A stretch of 58,457 bases of DNA from Verrucomicrobiota bacterium (GTDB lineage Bacteria; Verrucomicrobiota; Verrucomicrobiia; Limisphaerales; CANJXF01), in the NCBI GenBank assembly GCA_038214755.1, contig JBBQRQ010000021.1, positions 1 to 58,457 on the forward strand, read 5' to 3'. Positions 36,075-44,476 of this stretch are shown piece by piece. Position 1 is the first letter of the stretch. Each line of letters opens with the position of its first letter. The translations under genes were made by a program, and so were the position numbers. Under the pieces are notes generated by a model. That model did no database searches. It saw nothing but the letters and a program-made list of their open reading frames with translations, and was not told the origin of the DNA.

Positions 36075-36941
36075 TCAATCTTTTGTCGCCGACAGCGTAA
36101 AGTGAAAACTTGTTCCACGACCGACTTCGCTTTGGACCCACACATCGCCGCCGTGGCCTTGCACCACGTGTTTGACAATGGCCAGTCCCAAACCCGTTCC
36201 ACCCTGCTCACGTGAGCGCGCTTTGTCCACGCGATAGAACCGTTCAAAGACGCGATGCTGCGCGTCAGTGGGTATTCCAAAGCCATCGTCTTTTACCCAA
36301 ATTTCGATCTGACGCTCATGCGCGCGACCGCCGATGACGACGGTTCCTTCCGGTCTTCCATATTTCACGGCGTTGTCGATCAGGTTCCAAAAAACTTGTT
36401 CCAACCGATCCAAATCCGCGTGGGCGGAAAGCTCGCGCGGAACGTCGTTGATCAAAGAAACCTTTTTTTCCACCGCGCGAGCTTGCAAATCGCCAATGAC
36501 TTTTTCCACCAGCGGATGCAAGCGATTCGTCTGATAATTCAAAATGATTTGTCCCGACTCCAATTTTGAAATCGTCAACAAATCTTCGATCAGATAGGTG
36601 AGCCGGTCGGTGTGACGATCGATCGTTTGCAGAAATTTTTCCGCCACTTCAGGATTATCCTTCGCGCCGTCGAGCAGCGTTTCGATATAACCCTTGATCA
36701 TCGAGAGCGGCGTGCGCAATTCGTGACTGACGTTGGCCACGAATTCCTGCCGAGTATTTTCCAATTGGCGGAGGGCGTATTCCTGCGCCTGCACTTTGCT
36801 GATGGCTTCGCGCTGGTCTTCGCGGATTTCGGCCAGTTGCTCTTCTTTCCGCTTCATCGCCCGCAAAAATTTTTGTCGCCACGCGCAATGCACGCCAAAA
36901 ATTCCCACGAGAAAAAAGAACGAAAGCAGCGGCCAAAACAT
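36075..36941 (-). CDS. PhoR-like sensor histidine kinase, short form without PAS
   Basis: One TM, a coiled coil, then FVANVSHELRTPL, NLIDNAVKY, DDGFGIP, FERFYRVDKARSR..GGTGLGLAIVKH. Confidence 0.88.
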   Translation of the reverse strand: MFWPLLSFFFLVGIFGVHCAWRQKFLRAMKRKEEQLAEIREDQREAISKVQAQEYALRQLENTRQEFVANVSHELRTPLSMIKGYIETLLDGAKDNPEVAEKFLQTIDRHTDRLTYLIEDLLTISKLESGQIILNYQTNRLHPLVEKVIGDLQARAVEKKVSLINDVPRELSAHADLDRLEQVFWNLIDNAVKYGRPEGTVVIGGRAHERQIEIWVKDDGFGIPTDAQHRVFERFYRVDKARSREQGGTGLGLAIVKHVVQGHGGDVWVQSEVGRGTSFHFTLSATKD

Positions 36942-36945
36942 AAGA

Positions 36946-37629
36946 CTACTCCGACTTGAACCGATAACCGACGCCGCGAACGGTATCGAGATACTGCGCG
37001 GCGCCGCCCATTTTTTCGCGAAGCCGCCGCATGTGCGTGTCCACGGTGCGCGTGTCCACTGAGTTGTCGTATTCCCACACGTCGCGCAGCAAACGATCTC
37101 GCGATTGCACGACATCGCGGCGTTGCGCCAAAACGGTCAGCAACCTGAACTCGGTCGCGGTCAGTTCGATTTTTTTGTTTTTGAATTTCACGATGTGACG
37201 TGGCACGTCGATTGATAAATCTCCGAACTGAAAATTTTCCTTTGTCTCGGCGACGCTTTGCCTGCGTTCCAAAAGTTTTTTGATGCGTAGCACCAATTCT
37301 CGCGGGCTGAACGGCTTGGTCAAATAATCGTCCGCGCCCAATTCCAACCCGAGGACGCGGTCGATTTCACCCGCCTTTGCCGTCAACATGAGAATTGGAA
37401 TCGCCGCCGTGTTCGGGTCGCGGCGCAGGAGTTTGCAGATTTCGAAGCCGTCAATTTCCGGCAACATCACGTCGAGTACAATCAAGTTCGGCAACGCCGA
37501 ACGCGCTTTCGCCAAAGCTTCGCCGCCGTTGCCGGCGGTCTTCACCTGGAAACCAGCGTTCTTCAAATTGAACTCGATCAACTCAATCGCGTCGGGTTCA
37601 TCATCGACTACGAGAATGGTTGGTTTCAT
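36946..37629 (-). CDS. PhoB/PhoP-like OmpR-family response regulator
   Basis: LVVDDE, LDVMLP, GADDYLTKPFSPREL, and winged helix RTVDTHMRRLREK..TVRGVGY. Confidence 0.9.
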   Translation of the reverse strand: MKPTILVVDDEPDAIELIEFNLKNAGFQVKTAGNGGEALAKARSALPNLIVLDVMLPEIDGFEICKLLRRDPNTAAIPILMLTAKAGEIDRVLGLELGADDYLTKPFSPRELVLRIKKLLERRQSVAETKENFQFGDLSIDVPRHIVKFKNKKIELTATEFRLLTVLAQRRDVVQSRDRLLRDVWEYDNSVDTRTVDTHMRRLREKMGGAAQYLDTVRGVGYRFKSE

Positions 37630-37738
37630 GAGGCGCTGGCGGTCTGCCATTCGCGATCCGGGAACAAAGTAAAAGCGGAATATTTTTCTTTCACAAAATA
37701 TTTTTACCAAGCAGGGAAAGGAAGGCAACCATCGAGCG

Positions 37739-37765
37739 GTGACAAGCAGGTTACGATTGGTTGTC
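37739..37765 (-). promoter_or_regulatory. Pho-box-like 11-bp-spaced repeats upstream of the phoB-like gene
   Basis: Minus strand reads GACAA-N6-GTAAC-N6-GTCAC. Confidence 0.55.
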
Positions 37766-37858
37766 AGAAGCGCGACGCTCTTTCTCAGGGCTGACGCACA
37801 GAAAAAAATCAAAGTCAAAAAAAACGCCATGTCACACGAATTTAACATTCGACTGTGC

Positions 37859-38048: not shown

Positions 38049-38072
38049 ATGTTCCTTTGGTTTAATCGGTGC

Positions 38073-38882
38073 ATGGATAATTCTTTAAGTCCGATCTTCG
38101 CCAACGCCCTCTCGTTCGCTTTCGAGAAAGCCACGATTGAGGGAAAGATTACCATCACACTTTTGGCCATCGTCTCGCTCCTGAGCTGGACGGTGATGAT
38201 TACAAAATTTCGGCAGTTGATTCGCGCCCGCAAAATGGCGAGGAAATTTTTCGAGGCTTACCGTGCAACGCGCGATCCGCAGGAACTTTTTCGCGGGAAA
38301 CAGGAATTCGAGGGCGCGCCCGCTTACGAAGTCTATTACGCGGGGGCCGAGGAGTTGAGTTATCAATTCAAAAACAATCCGGTGCGCGTCCACAACCAGA
38401 CCAAGATCAGCCACGCTTCATTTGAATCGGTCAAAGTCGCTCTCGAGCGCAACGTGAGCGCGGAAGCGCTCTCCTTGGAAAAAGGAATGATCGTGCTCTC
38501 GACCGCAGTGTCCGGCGGGCCGTTCATCGGTTTGCTCGGAACGGTTTGGGGTGTGATGGAAACTTTTTCCGGCATCGCCAAAGCGAACACCGCCAGCTTG
38601 ACCGTCATGGCTCCGGGTGTGGCGGGCGCATTGATCGCGACGGTCATCGGCCTACTCGTAGCGATTCCTGCGATGTTCGCCTACAACTTCATGGTCACGA
38701 GCATTCGTGGCATCACGCAGGAACTGGATAATTTTGCGACGGAATACGCGACGGCAATTGAACACAGCTACGTGGATAATCGCGCGCTCGCCGATGAAAT
38801 CGCTGATGCGTTGAAAGGAATGTTGAACAAAGAGGAACCGGCGTATCGGGATTTTGAAACGGCAGAGGCATTCAAAGTTTAA
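38073..38882 (+). CDS. exbB: MotA/TolQ/ExbB proton channel protein
   Basis: LSTAVSGGPFIGLLGTVWGVM..F and APGVAGALIATVIGLLVAIPA. Confidence 0.9.
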   Translation: MDNSLSPIFANALSFAFEKATIEGKITITLLAIVSLLSWTVMITKFRQLIRARKMARKFFEAYRATRDPQELFRGKQEFEGAPAYEVYYAGAEELSYQFKNNPVRVHNQTKISHASFESVKVALERNVSAEALSLEKGMIVLSTAVSGGPFIGLLGTVWGVMETFSGIAKANTASLTVMAPGVAGALIATVIGLLVAIPAMFAYNFMVTSIRGITQELDNFATEYATAIEHSYVDNRALADEIADALKGMLNKEEPAYRDFETAEAFKV

Positions 38883-38899
38883 CGCGGCGATTTGATTTC

Positions 38900-39041
38900 A
38901 ACCACGAATGAACACGAATCGAAATAGAGCGAGGAGCGCGGCTGTGTCGTCCTCGACCAGCCGCAGCGCGTTAACTTTTTCGAGGCGCTGCGGCTGGTCT
39001 GCGACACAGCCGCGCTCCGTTTCGTTGGCGCATTCATTCGT
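38900..39041. repeat. Family M arms (CACGAATGAACACGAA) enclosing a family A element (38933-39018)
   Basis: Lies between exbB and exbD; related M arms at 46524-46669. Confidence 0.7.
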
Positions 39042-39056
39042 CCTTCCTTCTTAAAC

Positions 39057-39461
39057 ATGAAAAAATATTCCAAGACATCGCATCATTCGCTCAGCGAACT
39101 GAACATCACTCCGTTGCTCGATCTCGCGTTTGTGTTGTTGGTGATTTTTATCATCACGACCGCGCCGACGGTCAGCGACATTTCGATCAACCTTCCCAGC
39201 GCGCAGAGCGTTCCCAAAGATGCGCCGCCCAAAATAAATTATGTCAGCGTCGATAATTCCGGGAAAATTTATCTTAACCAAAAGGAAGTCAGCAACAGCC
39301 AACTGCTGGCGTTCCTCGTGGACTTCCGAAAAGCCGATCCTGATTTGAACGTCGTCGTTCGCGGAGACAGCGCGGTGCAATACAAAAAAATTGTCGAGGT
39401 GTTGGACACGCTCTCGCAAGCCAACGTCACCAAAGTCGGTTTGGCGACGGAACCGCAATAG
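39057..39461 (+). CDS. exbD: ExbD/TolR family protein
   Basis: ELNITPLLDLAFVLLVIFII (essential Asp) and VRGD..V.Y..IV.VLD. Confidence 0.92.
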   Translation: MKKYSKTSHHSLSELNITPLLDLAFVLLVIFIITTAPTVSDISINLPSAQSVPKDAPPKINYVSVDNSGKIYLNQKEVSNSQLLAFLVDFRKADPDLNVVVRGDSAVQYKKIVEVLDTLSQANVTKVGLATEPQ

Positions 39462-39500
39462 AACGTTTCAAAAGCATGTTGCGAAATTGGAACGCGGATA

Positions 39501-39606
39501 GGAGCGCGGACAGCTTGTCCGCGAGTGAATCGTGCAATGCGGAATGGCTAATCGTTTCGCGCATTTTTAAACCTCGACAACTCGCGGACAAGGCTGTCCG
39601 CGCTCC
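39501..39606. repeat. Palindromic element family F
   Basis: GGAGCGCGGACAGCTTGTCCGC...GCGGACAAGGCTGTCCGCGCTCC; other copy at 21765-21860. Confidence 0.85.
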
Positions 39607-39615
39607 TGTAAAGCA

Positions 39616-42582
39616 ATGCCGCGTGTAAAAAAGGATTCCACCAAATCCAGCCTGACGATTGCAATTGTCGCGCACGTTTTGGTTTTTCTGGTGATTTTCG
39701 TTTGGGCGGCGAAGACGGGGAAACTCGATCCCGTTTTGCGCGTGTTCAATCTTGTTCCAACAAAAAAACCGGAGCCGCCAAAAGAAAAACCGAAACCAGC
39801 GGAGCCAAAAATTGCGGAGCCGAAAGAAATTGTTGAACCGCAGGAAGCTCAAAAGCAGCCGCCGCCGACCACTCAAGCCTTGACTACTTCCGCTCCGAAT
39901 CCGAACGCGCCGCCTGCGCTTTCACCAGGTTTTTTCCAAGCAGAAAAGCGCGCGCCGAACGCGAAGCCGACGCCGTTTCAACCGCAAGTTCGCAGCGGCA
40001 AAACCACTGGTAAGGGAAGTAAAACGAACACGGGAACACCGTCGCTATTTTCAAACAAATCCACCAGGCCCAGCACCGTCGCGTCGGTGCTGGAAGATCG
40101 AAAGGCCGCAGTGGCTTCGCAGGACGCGATCAGTTCCGAGCAGATTACCAAAACAACCGCGAGCGACGCCGCCGCCGTGGTTTCAAAAATTTCCGGCGCC
40201 TCCATCGTGGAAGGAAAGTTCGTGGTCGTGCGCGGATTGAGTGATCGCTACAACACGACCACGTTGAACGGCGCGGACATTCCGACGGCCGATCCGTATC
40301 GCAAGGCCGCGCAACTCGACTTGATTCCCACGGCGATGATTGACCGGATCATTGTGAATAAAACTTTTACGCCGGACCAGCCGGGTGGTTTCGCGGGCGG
40401 CGCGGTGAATGTAGTGACGAAATCTTTTCCGGCGAAACCGTTCGCGTCGTTTTCTCTCGGCGCGGAATACAACACGCAATCCAGTTTGAACGAAAATTTT
40501 TTAAGTTATCACGGCGGCGCGACGGATTGGCTCGGGATGGACGACGGGTCGCGCGCGTTGCCGGGGAAATTGGAGAACGCGAACATTCCCACGCCGCCTC
40601 GGACCGCGCCCTCGCGTGAAACTCCAGCAGCGGCTGCGGCAAGACAAGCGCAAGCCGATTTGCTGGCCAGACTGACGGGTTCATTTCGATCCACGCAATT
40701 CGCCGCCAAAGAAAATACTTCGCCGCTGAATCAAAACTTTTCCCTGTCATTGGGCGACACCGCGCTTTTGGCGGAACGGCCATTCGGAATTTTCGCCAGT
40801 CTCAGTTACAAACGGGAATTTAATTTTTACGGGGATGGAGTTTCCGCGCGTTACAACAATGCCCTCGACTTGACCAAGCGTTGGGTGGACGCGCGCGGCA
40901 ACGAAACGGTGAACTGGGCGGGCGCGGTCAATCTCGCCTACCAACTGCATCCGAATCACGAATTGGGATTTAGTTTTCTTTACAACCAGAACAGCGAAGA
41001 CATCGGGCGGCGGCGCGTCGGGACAGATTTTACGACCGGCAGTCCCGAACTGGTCAGCGATTTAAACACGCTGCAATTCATCGAGCGCCAGTTGCACACG
41101 TTTCAACTCAAAGGCAAACATGAGTTGCTGCCGGAATCGCTCGAACTGAAAATTAATTGGCTGGCCGCGCTTTCTAATACTTCCCAGGACGAACCGGATT
41201 TGCGTTACTTCAATTATTATCACACGACCAGCGGCCGCACGTTCACCTTCGACAATTCCTTGCCTGAGCCGCGTCGGCCCACCCGATATTTCCGCGCATT
41301 GGAAGAGGACAATTTTAATACCAAGGTGGACGGCACGATTCCGTTTTGGTTTTTCAACGACGAACGCGGCGAACTTAAGGCAGGCGCATTTTACAGCAAG
41401 TCTGAAAGAACTTACGATGAACGGACTTTTTCTTACGCATCGCAAAGGAGCGATTCCGGTTTCGGCAATCCGCTTGATCCAAACACCTATCTCAATTCCA
41501 CGAACCTGAATTACACCACCGTGGTCGGGCCGCGCGGCACGAATTATATTTTTCCACGCTACCTCACTTCGGAACTGGGCAACAGCACTTACATTGGCAA
41601 ACAGGAAATCCAAGCGGCCTATTTGATGACGACATTGCCGTTCACGTCCCGATTGCGCGCGGTGGGCGGGGCGCGGGTGGAATCCACGGACTTGAGCGTC
41701 GCCTCGACGAGCGGCGCGTTGGCTTCCACCAACACAGCGCTTCGCCAAACTGATTTGTTGCCGGCGTTGAGTTTGATCGGCGACATCACTTCAAACCTGA
41801 CGTTACGCTTGAGTTATTCGCAGACGATTACGCGCCCGACTTATCGCGAGATTGCGTCGGTGCGCAGTTACGATTTGCCGACCGATACTTTGCTCGATGG
41901 CAATCCGAATTTGCAAATCACCTCGATCAAAAACTACGACGCGCGGCTGGAATGGTTTCCCAATCCCGGAGAAGTTTTTGCCGTCAGCGTTTTTTACAAA
42001 AACCTCAAAGCACCGATTGAAAAATATTCCGTGAATCAGGAATCCACCATTCTCACTTACATCAATCGCGACGCGGCGAAGCTCTATGGCGTGGAATTGG
42101 AAGCGCGCAAATCGCTCGGTTTTATTGATCCGCTTTTGAGCTACTTCAGCATCGGCGCAAATCTTTCGCTCATCGAATCAGAGGTAAAACTCACCGCCGC
42201 CGAACTCGCCAATAAACGTCCGTTGCGCCCGAATACGCCGACGAGCCGTTCGCTCTACGATCAATCGCCCTACATTTTCAACGCCGATTTTAATTACGAC
42301 AACCCGCGTCTCGGCACTTCCGCTTCATTGAGCCTCACGCTCGCCGGTCCGCGCGTTTTTTTCGTCAATCCATCCGGCCCCGACATCTACGAACATCCGC
42401 CGACGACCTTGGATTTTACTTTGGCGCAACGGCTGGGACGAAATCTGCGAATGAAATTTTCCGCAAAAAATCTGCTCGATCTTCCCTATCAGGTCACTTA
42501 CGGAAACAAGCCGGACGAATTTGTTTACACGTCCTACCGTCGCGGCGTCACGCTGGGGGTTTCGCTGGCTTACGATTTCTAA
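39616..42582 (+). CDS. TonB-dependent receptor with fused N-terminal TonB-like anchor and Pro-rich linker
   Basis: TM LTIAIVAHVLVFLVIFVW; KKPEPPKEKPKPAEPK linker; plug VVVRGLSDRY..LDLIP..I.V.KTFTPD..GGAVNVVTK; barrel GNPNL..NYDARLEWF and KNLLD; C-terminal LAYDF. Confidence 0.88.
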   Translation: MPRVKKDSTKSSLTIAIVAHVLVFLVIFVWAAKTGKLDPVLRVFNLVPTKKPEPPKEKPKPAEPKIAEPKEIVEPQEAQKQPPPTTQALTTSAPNPNAPPALSPGFFQAEKRAPNAKPTPFQPQVRSGKTTGKGSKTNTGTPSLFSNKSTRPSTVASVLEDRKAAVASQDAISSEQITKTTASDAAAVVSKISGASIVEGKFVVVRGLSDRYNTTTLNGADIPTADPYRKAAQLDLIPTAMIDRIIVNKTFTPDQPGGFAGGAVNVVTKSFPAKPFASFSLGAEYNTQSSLNENFLSYHGGATDWLGMDDGSRALPGKLENANIPTPPRTAPSRETPAAAAARQAQADLLARLTGSFRSTQFAAKENTSPLNQNFSLSLGDTALLAERPFGIFASLSYKREFNFYGDGVSARYNNALDLTKRWVDARGNETVNWAGAVNLAYQLHPNHELGFSFLYNQNSEDIGRRRVGTDFTTGSPELVSDLNTLQFIERQLHTFQLKGKHELLPESLELKINWLAALSNTSQDEPDLRYFNYYHTTSGRTFTFDNSLPEPRRPTRYFRALEEDNFNTKVDGTIPFWFFNDERGELKAGAFYSKSERTYDERTFSYASQRSDSGFGNPLDPNTYLNSTNLNYTTVVGPRGTNYIFPRYLTSELGNSTYIGKQEIQAAYLMTTLPFTSRLRAVGGARVESTDLSVASTSGALASTNTALRQTDLLPALSLIGDITSNLTLRLSYSQTITRPTYREIASVRSYDLPTDTLLDGNPNLQITSIKNYDARLEWFPNPGEVFAVSVFYKNLKAPIEKYSVNQESTILTYINRDAAKLYGVELEARKSLGFIDPLLSYFSIGANLSLIESEVKLTAAELANKRPLRPNTPTSRSLYDQSPYIFNADFNYDNPRLGTSASLSLTLAGPRVFFVNPSGPDIYEHPPTTLDFTLAQRLGRNLRMKFSAKNLLDLPYQVTYGNKPDEFVYTSYRRGVTLGVSLAYDF

Positions 42583-42591
42583 TTGCGCCTC

Positions 42592-42711
42592 GTAGGGCAG
42601 GCTTTCCCGCCTGCCGGTGCCGGGGACTTTCCAGTCCCTCGGAAATATTTAAAAAACCCATTCACGAAACTGGAAAGTTTTGTCACCGGCAAGCTCGAAA
42701 GCCTGCCCTAC
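42592..42711. repeat. Palindromic element family K (copy 2)
   Basis: Reverse-oriented relative of 37859-37989. Confidence 0.88.
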
Positions 42712-42730
42712 AACATCCTGTGAAAAAAAC

Positions 42731-42766
42731 TTCACGCATTTGTAACTCCACCGACCTTTGATCGTC
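42731..42766 (+). promoter_or_regulatory. Conserved promoter module upstream of the exported protein
   Basis: TTCACGCA-N3-GTAAC-N13-GATCGTC. Confidence 0.65.
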
Positions 42767-42828
42767 GCAGCATTGTGTCAGCTTCGTCCGCGTAGAAAAA
42801 AATCCGAAACAGAAATTGACAACTGACT

Positions 42829-44418
42829 ATGAAAAAAATCCTCCTCTCGCTCTTAACCGCGCTGGCGATACAAAGCGCCAGTGCCAGCACGAACAATATT
42901 TCCGGCAGCCTGACCGGAACAAATAATTGGTTCTCAACCAACACTTACATTCTAAACGGTCCAGTCTATGTGTTGAGCAATGCGGTGTTGAACATCGAGG
43001 CTGGCACGGTGATCAAAGGCCAGACTAACGCCAGCGCGGCGACCATTTCGATGCTCATCATTACACGTGGCGCAAAAGTTTTTGCGAACGGCACGGCGAA
43101 TAGTCCGATCATTTTTACCTCGGTGCTGGATGATGTTAATGATCCGTTTGATCTGCCGATCTATCAGCGCGGGCTTTGGGGTGGTGTCGTGATTTTCGGC
43201 AGCGCAAAGATCAACACGGCCAGCGACGCAGCGGGCAATGCCGCCAGTCCGAAATACGACGTTTACGAAGGTCTCGCCGACACTCAAATCAGCGGCCAAT
43301 TCGTCCATCGTTTCGGCGGAACAAATGATGACGATAGTTCCGGTGTTTTCCGTTATGTCTCGATTCGTCACGGCGGAAAAGTTTTGGAATCGAACAAGGA
43401 AATCAACGGACTTTCGCTCGGCACGGTCGGTCGCGGAACGACGATTGAATATGTCGAAGCTTACGCGATTGCCGACGACGGGTTTGAATTTTTCGGCGGC
43501 TCGGTTAATTGCAAATATTTAGTCAGCGCCTTCAACGACGACGATACGTTCGACGCCGATCAAGGTTACTCTGGAAAACTGCAATTCCTTTTCTCCATCC
43601 AAGAGCCGGGTGCGCGCGACAAAGGTTGGGAACTTAACGGTGAACCCAACGGAATCGCCGTGGGCGCATTGCCCACGATGAAAATGGAAGTTTATAACGC
43701 GACGACCATCGGCGCAGGAACCAACGGCGGCGGCTCGGCCAACAACGCCTTCACGATTCGCGAATTCGCCTCGCCGAGTTTTTTCAACTGCATCTTTACC
43801 GACTATTCGCAACGCGGCCTTTCCATCGGCGCCAACTGCACCAACTTCCTCAATTCTGGTTCGCTGGACATGAGAAATAATCTTTGGTGGGGTTTCGGCA
43901 CGAGCGCCGGCGCGAACACGGTGACGAATATCGTGATTGATAACGGCAGCGTGTTGTTCACCGATTCGACGCGCAGCAATTCCATCGTCAACCCGCAACT
44001 GCGCGGCATCAAACGCGATGACACCGGCGGACTCGACCCTCGCCCCTTGCCCGGCAGCCCCGCTCTCACCGGCGGTCGCACTCCGCCGAATAACGGGTTC
44101 TACACTCAAGTGAATTATCAAGGCGCTTTCGATGCGAATGATTTGTGGATCGCCGGTTGGACTGCGTTGTCGAAATACCAAATCATCCCGCTGGTGGTTG
44201 TGGCGCCGACGATCACATTCAACCGCAGTGGCGGTTCCATTGCGCTGAGTTCCACTTCGCAAATCGGACACACTTACCAACTCCAGTCCGTCAACACGTT
44301 GGGAACATTGCCCGGCTGGACCAATTCAGGAGCACCGGTAACGGGAACGGGATCGAACATCACTTTCATCAAACCCATCGGGGCGACGAATACATTTTAT
44401 CGCATCATGGTTCAGTAG
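42829..44418 (+). CDS. Exported, probable beta-helix protein with a C-terminal '...FYRI' domain
   Basis: Sec signal; GLWGGVVIFG, DDSSGVFRYVSIRHGG, EINGL, DDGFEFFGG, DDDTFD motifs; ends YQLQS..W..GTG..FYRIMVQ. Confidence 0.75.
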   Translation: MKKILLSLLTALAIQSASASTNNISGSLTGTNNWFSTNTYILNGPVYVLSNAVLNIEAGTVIKGQTNASAATISMLIITRGAKVFANGTANSPIIFTSVLDDVNDPFDLPIYQRGLWGGVVIFGSAKINTASDAAGNAASPKYDVYEGLADTQISGQFVHRFGGTNDDDSSGVFRYVSIRHGGKVLESNKEINGLSLGTVGRGTTIEYVEAYAIADDGFEFFGGSVNCKYLVSAFNDDDTFDADQGYSGKLQFLFSIQEPGARDKGWELNGEPNGIAVGALPTMKMEVYNATTIGAGTNGGGSANNAFTIREFASPSFFNCIFTDYSQRGLSIGANCTNFLNSGSLDMRNNLWWGFGTSAGANTVTNIVIDNGSVLFTDSTRSNSIVNPQLRGIKRDDTGGLDPRPLPGSPALTGGRTPPNNGFYTQVNYQGAFDANDLWIAGWTALSKYQIIPLVVVAPTITFNRSGGSIALSSTSQIGHTYQLQSVNTLGTLPGWTNSGAPVTGTGSNITFIKPIGATNTFYRIMVQ

Positions 44419-44446: not shown

Positions 44447-44476
44447 GAGAAGCCCGACTGGGCTTCTCTTTTTTTT
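44447..44476 (+). terminator. Intrinsic terminator
   Basis: GAGAAGCCC-GACT-GGGCTTCTC followed by a T-tract. Confidence 0.8.

Follow-up and report, generated by a model that had tools for sequence, protein, structure and literature searches.

The DNA considered here is contig JBBQRQ010000021.1, positions 1 to 58,457 (hereafter the window, i.e. the whole stretch of 58,457 nucleotides), of a Verrucomicrobiota bacterium (Limisphaerales; CANJXF01; assembly GCA_038214755.1). It is contig C21 of a metagenome-assembled genome of 5.1 Mb in 175 contigs, which is rated 97% complete. On the plus strand of the window an exbB/tolQ-like gene is followed by an exbD/tolR-like gene, by an open reading frame (ORF) of 988 aa in which the N-terminal half of a TonB protein is continuous with the plug and the barrel of an outer-membrane receptor, and by a gene for a secreted protein of 529 aa. 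The features of this operon and of the fusion protein are the following (AF2, AlphaFold2):

38049..38882, plus strand: exbB/tolQ-like motor subunit, 277 aa (Pfam MotA_ExbB, 1.9e-29)
39057..39461, plus strand: exbD/tolR-like motor subunit, 134 aa (Pfam ExbD, 8.9e-30)
39616..42582, plus strand: whole fusion ORF, 988 aa, no stop; TonB N-terminal half, plug and barrel
39616..39645, plus strand: basic cytoplasmic tail, residues 1-10, MPRVKKDSTK (a basic tail is conserved in the alignments)
39646..39711, plus strand: membrane helix, residues 11-32 (His20 invariant; Ala16 at a Ser/Ala position)
39730..39759, plus strand: D-box-like stretch, residues 39-48, PVLRVFNLVP, proline-flanked, just before the proline-rich rod
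39760..39915, plus strand: Pro/Lys/Glu-rich rod, residues 49-100 (29% Pro; 58% Pro, Lys and Glu together)
39898..39951, plus strand: conserved linker motif, residues 95-112, NPNAPPALSPGFFQAEKR (column conservation)
39952..40107, plus strand: Ser/Thr/Gly/Lys-rich spacer and pre-plug helix, residues 113-164 (AF2 helix at 155-168)
40108..40401, plus strand: Plug, residues 165-262 (PF07715, 5.2e-9, 37 bits against a cut-off of 23.9)
40708..42582, plus strand: beta-barrel, residues ~365-988 (PF00593, TonB_dep_Rec_b-barrel, at 523-953, 6.4e-29)
42829..44418, plus strand: secreted beta-helix protein, 529 aa (nearest Atlas clusters 'Pectate-lyase like beta helix', PF28492, score 0.99, possibly a cluster of its own)

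TonB normally binds the TonB box of a receptor non-covalently, and the histidine in the SxxxH motif of the TonB and TolA membrane helices couples these proteins to ExbB and ExbD. The initial annotation had described an ORF in the tonB position behind exbB and exbD that carries a TonB-type anchor fused to a receptor, and the reading frame is as described, running uninterrupted over 988 codons from 39616 to 42582 as the third gene behind exbB and exbD. The basic tail and the single helix with its histidine (AIVAH) lie at residues 1-10 and 11-32; the helix (SSLTIAIVAHVLVFLVIFVWAA) is a run of 22 residues without K, R, D, E, Q, N or P and contains His20. This histidine is invariant in alignments of 38 and of 33 diverse fused sequences, from which the conservation of the histidine and linker columns was taken, and in the former set it is the sole invariant residue within the first 97 positions. 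The proposed SxxxH motif stood with respect to the histidine only, since the window protein has AxxxH; across 97 fused homologues the residue four positions before the histidine is Ser in 70 and Ala in 27. The helix is followed by KTGKLD and then by PVLRVFNLVP. Of the Pro/Lys/Glu-rich linker of about 120 aa that had been proposed, the linker itself is present (residues 33-164), but only residues 49-100 have this composition, the remainder being rich in Ser, Thr, Ala, Gly, Asn and Gln. Midway in this otherwise variable linker the motif at 95-112, of the form (D/N)AP.A...(F)F...R, is conserved, with A98 invariant and P99, F107 and R112 present in at least 90% of the sequences. No Pfam or NCBIfam model matched residues 1-164.

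Plug and barrel follow without a stop or frameshift, as had been noted, and the protein ends in ...SLAYDF with the aromatic terminal residue of a beta-signal (family consensus end, YDF). In the whole-genome scan the Plug match reached 41.7 bits. The best NCBIfam model for the 988-aa protein is the TonB-Xanth-Caul subfamily (246 bits, under the cut-off of 310 bits), which we take to be associated with carbohydrate-uptake receptors. An AF2 model built from an alignment of 38 sequences (mean predicted local distance difference test score, pLDDT, 79.9; predicted template modelling score, pTM, 0.76) contains a helix at 11-33, a disordered region at 45-183 with pLDDT below 50, which includes the rod at 49-100 without any regular secondary structure, and a confidently modelled plug and barrel, the latter with a pLDDT of about 90 and with long strands beginning at residue 365. 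Comparison of this model with the PDB using Foldseek retrieved 174 chains at E ≤ 0.001, and only TonB-dependent transporters (TBDTs) are among the top matches listed (PhuR, 9e-26; PfeA, FecA and FepA). The plug-plus-barrel part of the model shows the TBDT fold. The distance from helix to plug in the window protein is about 130 residues, comparable to the length of the E. coli TonB linker; measured from five residues before the histidine to the RGLSDRY motif of the plug it amounts to 180-234 residues at 52 loci, with a median of 202.

The fused architecture is found well beyond this assembly. A search for homologues of the receptor in 5.8 billion proteins, for which 8000 candidates were scored, gave 483 homologues at E ≤ 1e-5, and the best 120 were classified: 97 begin with a helix and histidine of the same kind, a further 19 have a signal peptide with a start of the CarboxypepD_reg type, and four are truncated or unclear. 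The fused form is thus represented by 97 database clusters with 42-88% identity. A scan for related loci, using one genome per species, returned 415 stretches, and all counts of fused and unfused loci given here refer to the best 80 of these 415. Fused proteins are encoded at 54 of the 80, all in other genome records than that of the window; the record titles of 46 name Verrucomicrobiota, and eight have other, unverified labels. Some records are titled Klebsiella, Bifidobacterium or Akkermansia muciniphila (L031, L033, L035, L039, L040, L053, L091 and others), labels which look wrong for these Verrucomicrobia-type genes. Furthermore, a separately assembled contig of 3650 bases covers 38989-42638 without differences; the sequencing run may be that of the source sample, and the contig therefore counts as an independent assembly of possibly the same sample and not as an independent sample. 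The junction is thus not unique to the assembly, and the fusion is certain at the level of the gene.

The same architecture next to exbB and exbD, for which the initial annotation had suggested a search, was recovered in every fused locus with enough upstream DNA (at least 1700 nt; 51 of the 54), orthologues of both genes lying directly upstream. Strict thresholds for the two genes were passed in 50 of these 51, and the remaining locus (L082) has exbB and an exbD ORF which was missed by the filter (ORF overlap). The three fused loci with short flanks contain whatever part of the exbB-exbD pair fits, and directly upstream of the 18 complete unfused loci these orthologues were found in none. Within the phylum the distribution is uneven: with a stricter threshold (E ≤ 1e-50, used for a first look) 19 of 401 sampled genomes had a receptor match, and only two of these, the genome of the window and one of the same order, encode the fused form. 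The fused architecture is thus conserved and diverse, yet phylogenetically patchy.

The N-terminal module also occurs in proteins that lack a receptor part. A profile of the first 60 residues, made from 33 loci and run against 1.84 billion representative proteins, gave 144 matches at E ≤ 1e-3, of which 31 reached E ≤ 1e-10, fused proteins, fragments and many proteins of 200-300 aa being among them. Among 30 matches of the last kind that were scanned, 27 carry TonB_2 (PF13103) at the C-terminus, two have no domain match and the remaining one is a truncated form of the fused protein; where the sources name them, the stand-alone relatives are called 'TonB family protein' or 'protein TonB'. The similarity of the N-terminus to TonB proteins, on which the earlier interpretation depended, is therefore borne out. 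The relative P0155 aligns over its residues 7-112 with 39619-39927 of the window at 41% identity (E 2e-16), and the joint alignment is colinear from the basic tail through the His helix, a juxtamembrane AA[KR]xG and a beta-prone, D-box-like strand to the KEKxPE start of the rod. In addition, stand-alone relatives have APPAA..F.F directly before the TonB_2 domain, which resembles the fusion motif at 95-112. When shorter proteins with residues 1-150 in common were sought by a word-based search, a single fragment of 111 aa was obtained. Judged by these alignments, the N-terminal module is homologous to the anchor half of real TonB proteins.

The genomic context of the stand-alone relatives is similar. 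A scan of metagenome contigs with P0155 alone found no relative, and one with P0191 returned 80 loci of relatives; among the 33 with at least 1400 nt of upstream DNA, exbB lies upstream in all and exbD in 32. These operons have the order exbB-exbD-tonB-exbD, the second exbD following tonB in most of the longer loci listed (L126-L188); the fused loci are without that second exbD. ExbB proteins from the operons of P0191 relatives match the window ExbB with E values of 1e-91 to 1e-121, and those of fused loci fall into this range as well. The ExbD/TolR-like protein of the window has its transmembrane Asp22 in common with all 29 orthologues compared, at a mean column identity of 69%. The D-box-like PVLRVFNLVP (RVFNLV in the window) aligns with IAVTMV or LSVTMV of several stand-alone relatives. 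For E. coli, the parts of the published work covered here describe capture of the TonB D-box peptide QPISVTMVTPAD as a strand by the ExbD dimer (PMC10907165). The RVFNLV/IAVTMV-type stretch resembles this D-box and might be its counterpart, a candidate that serves as a lead; a D-box pattern was present in four of 25 relatives in its strict form and in 13 in its loose form. Modelling residues 31-125 of the fusion together with a pair of ExbD periplasmic domains (residues 40-134) gave a score of 0.00 and a mark of 0.32, which counts neither for nor against such binding.

That the window contains neither a TonB C-terminal domain nor a separate tonB, as the initial annotation held, is true of the window: there is no Pfam TonB_C or TonB_2 match in the fusion protein or elsewhere on its contig. 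It is not true of the genome, which has three TonB_C/TonB_2 proteins outside the window, on contigs C77, C6 and C19. Three of the four ExbB loci in the genome adjoin one of these genes, which stands after exbD on C77 and C6 and before exbB on C19; the fourth is that of the window, where the fusion fills the tonB slot after exbD. The locus on C77 (3751-7582) is a complete tolQ-tolR-tolA-tolB-pal cluster, and its protein in TolA position has an S-x3-H anchor and the only TonB_2 match of the genome. The window locus was also considered as the Tol-Pal system of the organism, which is ruled out by this complete cluster; the motor encoded in the window is hence not the Tol system.

Unfused relatives of the receptor provide a direct comparison. 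In these Verrucomicrobiota sisters a signal peptide and a CarboxypepD_reg domain are followed, immediately ahead of the plug, by the motif E[ML]EE[YF]EV, which by the general consensus looks like a TonB box. In the alignment of fused and unfused sequences the motif is absent from the fused proteins at the corresponding place, within the spacer of residues 113-164, while the helix that follows it (...LEDRKAAVA...) is kept. A regular expression for the motif found it in 13 of the 18 complete unfused loci and in none of the 54 fused loci, in agreement with the earlier statement that the fusion has no TonB box. As the chain is joined exactly there, the fusion meets the plug where the TonB box would be pulled. 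At least 12 of the 18 complete unfused loci lie about 2 kb behind a different Ton cluster, which encodes ExbB (467 aa), ExbB, ExbD, ExbD, TonB and a TPR protein. In this six-gene cluster (L047, L049, L054, L065, L068, L071-L073, L088-L090 and L104) the 467-aa ExbB has a long N-terminal extension, the TonB has 220 aa (TonB_C, 1e-18 to 1e-21) and the TPR protein about 490 aa.

Fused and unfused forms are not separated in the phylogeny of their shared core. In trees of the plug-plus-barrel region calculated with FastTree (134 sequences) and IQ-TREE (57 sequences) the two forms interleave; the barrel tree needs seven changes of label, at least four of which are forced by branches with a support of at least 95 in the Shimodaira-Hasegawa-like approximate likelihood ratio test (SH-aLRT). 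Keeping 35 fused rows together was 712 log-likelihood units worse, with p 1.4e-93 in the approximately unbiased (AU) test, for a group that was named after the first tree. A single origin of the fused form was thus ruled out by the seven label changes and by this test, the group in the latter having been chosen post hoc. Plug and barrel of unfused and fused proteins are 50-68% identical, and some unfused proteins are closer to fused than to other unfused ones: P0094, for example, is 67-68% identical to fused barrels and 54% to another unfused clade. Some genome records contain both forms. The interleaved trees and the pairwise identities suggest that the same transporter core changed its form of coupling more than once; alternatively, the barrels may have recombined between paralogues. 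The interchangeability of the two forms is the best indirect argument that the fused one would do the same job as the TonB-dependent one. With respect to the genome of the window, a 1245-codon frame on contig C15 (15690-17003, minus strand) scores 50.6 bits with the barrel model, with no Plug match at E ≤ 0.001, and possibly represents an atypical third barrel protein beside the two plug-bearing receptors otherwise present.

The interpretation given in the initial annotation is supported as far as sequence analysis reaches. We consider it fairly probable (about 0.6) that the 988-aa protein is a natural single-chain fusion working as an uncleaved importer that is pulled by its motor. Other explanations have to be weighed against this. 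One of them is an artefact of assembly, frameshift or gene calling, by which a tonB gene became joined to the receptor gene beside it. That the genome was assembled from a metagenome, is in 175 contigs and has repeats in the flanking spacers at which independent contigs break invites this suspicion, but the repeats all lie outside the ORF, the separate contig spans exbD through the whole ORF without a difference, no frame of the window contains a remnant of a TonB C-terminal domain, and the same continuous ORF recurs in other genomes and database clusters, so that the chance of an artefact is negligible. A more substantial alternative is that the TonB-like N-terminus serves only for export and targeting, after which it is removed, either through signal peptidase acting behind VWA or through cleavage of the linker by a protease of the periplasm. 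What remains would be an ordinary outer-membrane receptor with a long N-terminal extension, TonB-independent or energised in another way. All beta-barrel proteins need Sec export, which the helix would supply; in the sisters the barrel core functions behind an ordinary signal peptide, the two kinds of N-terminus have replaced each other several times, and in the window the helix ends in V-W-A followed by A, a permitted -3/-1 pattern. The reading of the initial annotation depends on the helix not being an ordinary cleaved signal peptide, which is probable, with the reservation of that permitted site. The uncharged run measures 20-26 residues (median 22) in the 97 fused proteins versus 9-18 (median 14) in 20 signal peptides of the sisters. 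Nor does the end of the helix show the conservation of a cleavage site: the most frequent ends of the run among the 97 include WAA (27), ILS (14), WAY (13) and WAW (12), with WAH also occurring, and small-x-small at the run end, found in 23 of the 97 and in 5 of the 20 sister signal peptides, does not discriminate between them. Moreover, a peptide that is thrown away would have no use for the invariant histidine or for the conserved juxtamembrane and linker motifs; the TonB anchors to which the module is homologous function only if they are left uncleaved; the strict linkage to exbB and exbD would be left unexplained; and a mature receptor without a TonB-box-like motif could not thereby engage any TonB. 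An ordinary cleaved signal peptide is therefore unlikely on these sequence features, and removal of the N-terminus in any of these ways appears improbable to us.

It is equally doubtful, in our estimation, that the chain spans both membranes without being an importer, acting instead as an energised envelope tether or a sensor in the manner of Tol-Pal or Dma proteins. The motor subunits score best against TolQ and TolR models (the 277-aa protein gives 163.5 bits with the NCBIfam tolQ model and 129.3 bits with that for exbB, both under the equivalog cut-offs), the stand-alone relatives carry TonB_2, the sole Pfam family that matches the TolA-position protein of this genome, and the single chains so far known to span two membranes are, as far as the literature covered goes, sensors. 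Against a tether or sensor speak the separate and complete Tol-Pal cluster on C77, the full plug-in-barrel transporter fold of the core and its interchangeability with a version that bears a TonB-box-like motif and is linked to a TonB operon. A secreted beta-helix partner accompanies both versions, the gene has a scattered distribution within the phylum, as would not be expected of a housekeeping envelope system, and the cytoplasmic tail of only ten residues leaves the fusion without a signalling domain.

Several observations also weigh directly against a motor-pulled importer. A hidden Markov model (HMM) of the N-terminus, built from 97 family members, found no other match at E ≤ 10 among the 17,270 ORFs of the genome, which means that the TolA and TonB anchors of this organism are not detectably similar to that of the fusion. 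The window protein has Ala in place of the classical Ser four residues before the histidine, its helix ends in accordance with the -3/-1 rule for signal peptidase, and the architecture is rare (2 of 19 receptor-matching genomes in the phylum sample). The interleaving of the two forms could also mean that the N-terminus is a swappable targeting or anchoring module and not a force transducer. In known systems the TonB box couples the use of energy to ligand binding, and a permanent tether offers no obvious equivalent; ligand-gated exposure of the TonB box is lost in the fusion, and how futile pulling would be avoided is unexplained. Finally, we know of no precedent for the assembly of a 22-stranded barrel whose N-terminus is held in the inner membrane, Dma1 having eight strands.

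If the protein is nevertheless an uncleaved importer, its TonB half would supply the His anchor, a juxtamembrane D-box-like strand and a Pro/Lys-rich rod, and its transporter half the plug and barrel. The N-terminal helix would stay in the inner membrane, docked on an ExbB5-ExbD2 proton motor, the juxtamembrane strand may be gripped by the periplasmic domains of ExbD, the linker of about 130 residues (rod and spacer) would cross the periplasm, and the barrel would sit in the outer membrane. Movement of the motor might then tension the chain, pull at the usual place of the TonB box and partly unfold the N-terminal plug, so that the substrate can pass; a peptide bond would replace the non-covalent handshake between TonB C-terminal domain and TonB box. 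We infer retention of the anchor, the dual-membrane topology and the transmission of force, as well as the substrate; tentatively, the probable cargo is a glycan, or else a different polymer product on which the co-encoded beta-helix protein acts. For the more comprehensive proposal of a true one-chain trans-envelope machine, with an uncleaved anchor, a 22-stranded outer-membrane barrel, ExbB-ExbD pulling via the linker of the protein itself and a core that switched repeatedly between covalent and non-covalent coupling, we see a slightly better than even chance.

With the canonical Ton system (FepA, FecA and BtuB of E. coli; PhuR and PfeA of P. aeruginosa) the fusion system shares the ExbB and ExbD genes, the transmembrane Asp of ExbD, the TonB-type His anchor, a candidate D-box-like strand, a Pro/Lys rod and the predicted plug-in-barrel fold (Foldseek, ~1e-25), and it differs in being without a TonB C-terminal domain and without a TonB-box-like motif. 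Because transducer and receptor form one polypeptide, coupling would be covalent, 1:1 and permanent, whereas in the canonical system it is transient and shared by many receptors. The stand-alone TonB_2-type TonBs of uncultured bacteria (P0155 and P0191) are homologous over their N-terminal ~110-125 residues (best profile E, ~1e-11) and have near-orthologous ExbB and ExbD proteins, but end in a globular TonB_2 domain of ~85 residues, where the fusion has spacer, plug and barrel (more than 800 residues). The unfused Verrucomicrobiota sisters share plug, barrel and the downstream beta-helix partner gene, and differ by their ordinary signal peptide, CarboxypepD_reg domain and TonB-box-like motif, by a separate TonB (TonB_C) and by another motor set. 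VirB10 of type IV secretion is likewise described as TonB-like, Pro-rich and anchored in the inner membrane, as inserting into the outer membrane and as sensing energy; unlike the fusion, it is described with a helical outer-membrane part in a multi-subunit core complex and is not known to have a beta-barrel, a plug or an ExbBD motor.

The nearest precedent for the topology is Dma1 of Bacteroides thetaiotaomicron, for which the sections of the report covered here describe an inner-membrane helix, a disordered linker and an eight-stranded outer-membrane barrel, experimentally one chain spanning both membranes (PMC10927553). By analogy, a dual-membrane topology would be feasible in principle. 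The likeness, which for the fusion concerns predicted architecture only, lies in a single chain that runs from the inner-membrane helix through a disordered linker to an outer-membrane barrel at the C-terminus. By the same sections, Dma1 differs in having a cytoplasmic anti-sigma domain and in signalling; the fusion has a ten-residue cytoplasmic tail, a plugged TBDT barrel and a proton-motor partner. Neither a Dma-type anti-sigma domain nor a gene for an extracytoplasmic function (ECF) sigma factor was found with the fusion, the neighbours being exbB, exbD and the beta-helix gene. A full-text literature search, whose scope did not include most subscription journals, did not turn up any account of a naturally occurring fusion between TonB and a receptor. 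Among periplasmic force transducers, a 2025 survey reports new inner-membrane-tethered classes, with no TBDT fusion in the parts covered (PMC12204202).

The downstream 529-aa protein had no match in the local Pfam scan. A homologue lies downstream in 16 of the 34 fused and 10 of the 15 unfused loci for which downstream DNA of 1500 nt or more is available. The window protein and its homologues at L026, L028, L032, L033, L043, L049, L050 and L104 vary in length from ~530 to more than 1600 aa, and local Pfam matches were limited to Ig-like domains, present in two of the long versions, and to PhoX, matched below threshold in one. Behind the beta-helix gene, at 44447..44468 on the plus strand, there is a terminator-like hairpin of nine pairs with a T-run, which is a consensus match only, since terminator-like sites in the region (12 observed) are not above the shuffle mean (13.4). 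Each of the three operon spacers (38883-39056, 39462-39615 and 42583-42828) contains palindromic dispersed repeats, which belong to three different families and have 39, 92 and 88 blastn-short matches across the genome; as a consequence the spacers are longer here than in relatives. Independent contigs end at two of the three spacer repeats, where the depth is 45-115 as compared with ~20. Just upstream of exbB, and divergent from it, lie genes on the minus strand for a PhoR/PnpS-like histidine kinase (36075-37115) and a PhoB-like response regulator (36946-37848), both under the NCBIfam equivalog cut-offs. Such a pair stands beside the operon only in the closest relatives (L025 and L026), with the regulator also at L050 and the kinase at L041, and has no family-wide link to the operon. 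A search of sequencing runs found no RNA run containing the stretch, and a single DNA run, possibly that of the source sample.

How TonB turns the movement of the motor into the opening of a gate in the outer membrane is still debated. The fusion fixes the stoichiometry of transducer and gate at 1:1, removes the cycle of binding and release and puts the pulling point at the N-terminus of the plug, and it thus asks whether anchor, D-box and rod suffice to transmit force. The related unfused versions, with their separate TonB and TonB-box-like motif, represent a natural matched control. If the proposed reading is true, the handshake between TonB C-terminal domain and TonB box would be dispensable for force transduction, and, given the repeated switching of the core between coupling modes, the two modes would be functionally interchangeable. 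After Dma1, the fusion would also be the second known kind of helix-plus-barrel polypeptide spanning both membranes, and the first whose barrel is large and plugged. Such a protein raises questions for biogenesis by Sec, chaperones and the barrel-assembly machinery (BAM), which would have to be capable of folding a large barrel while its chain remains anchored in the inner membrane.

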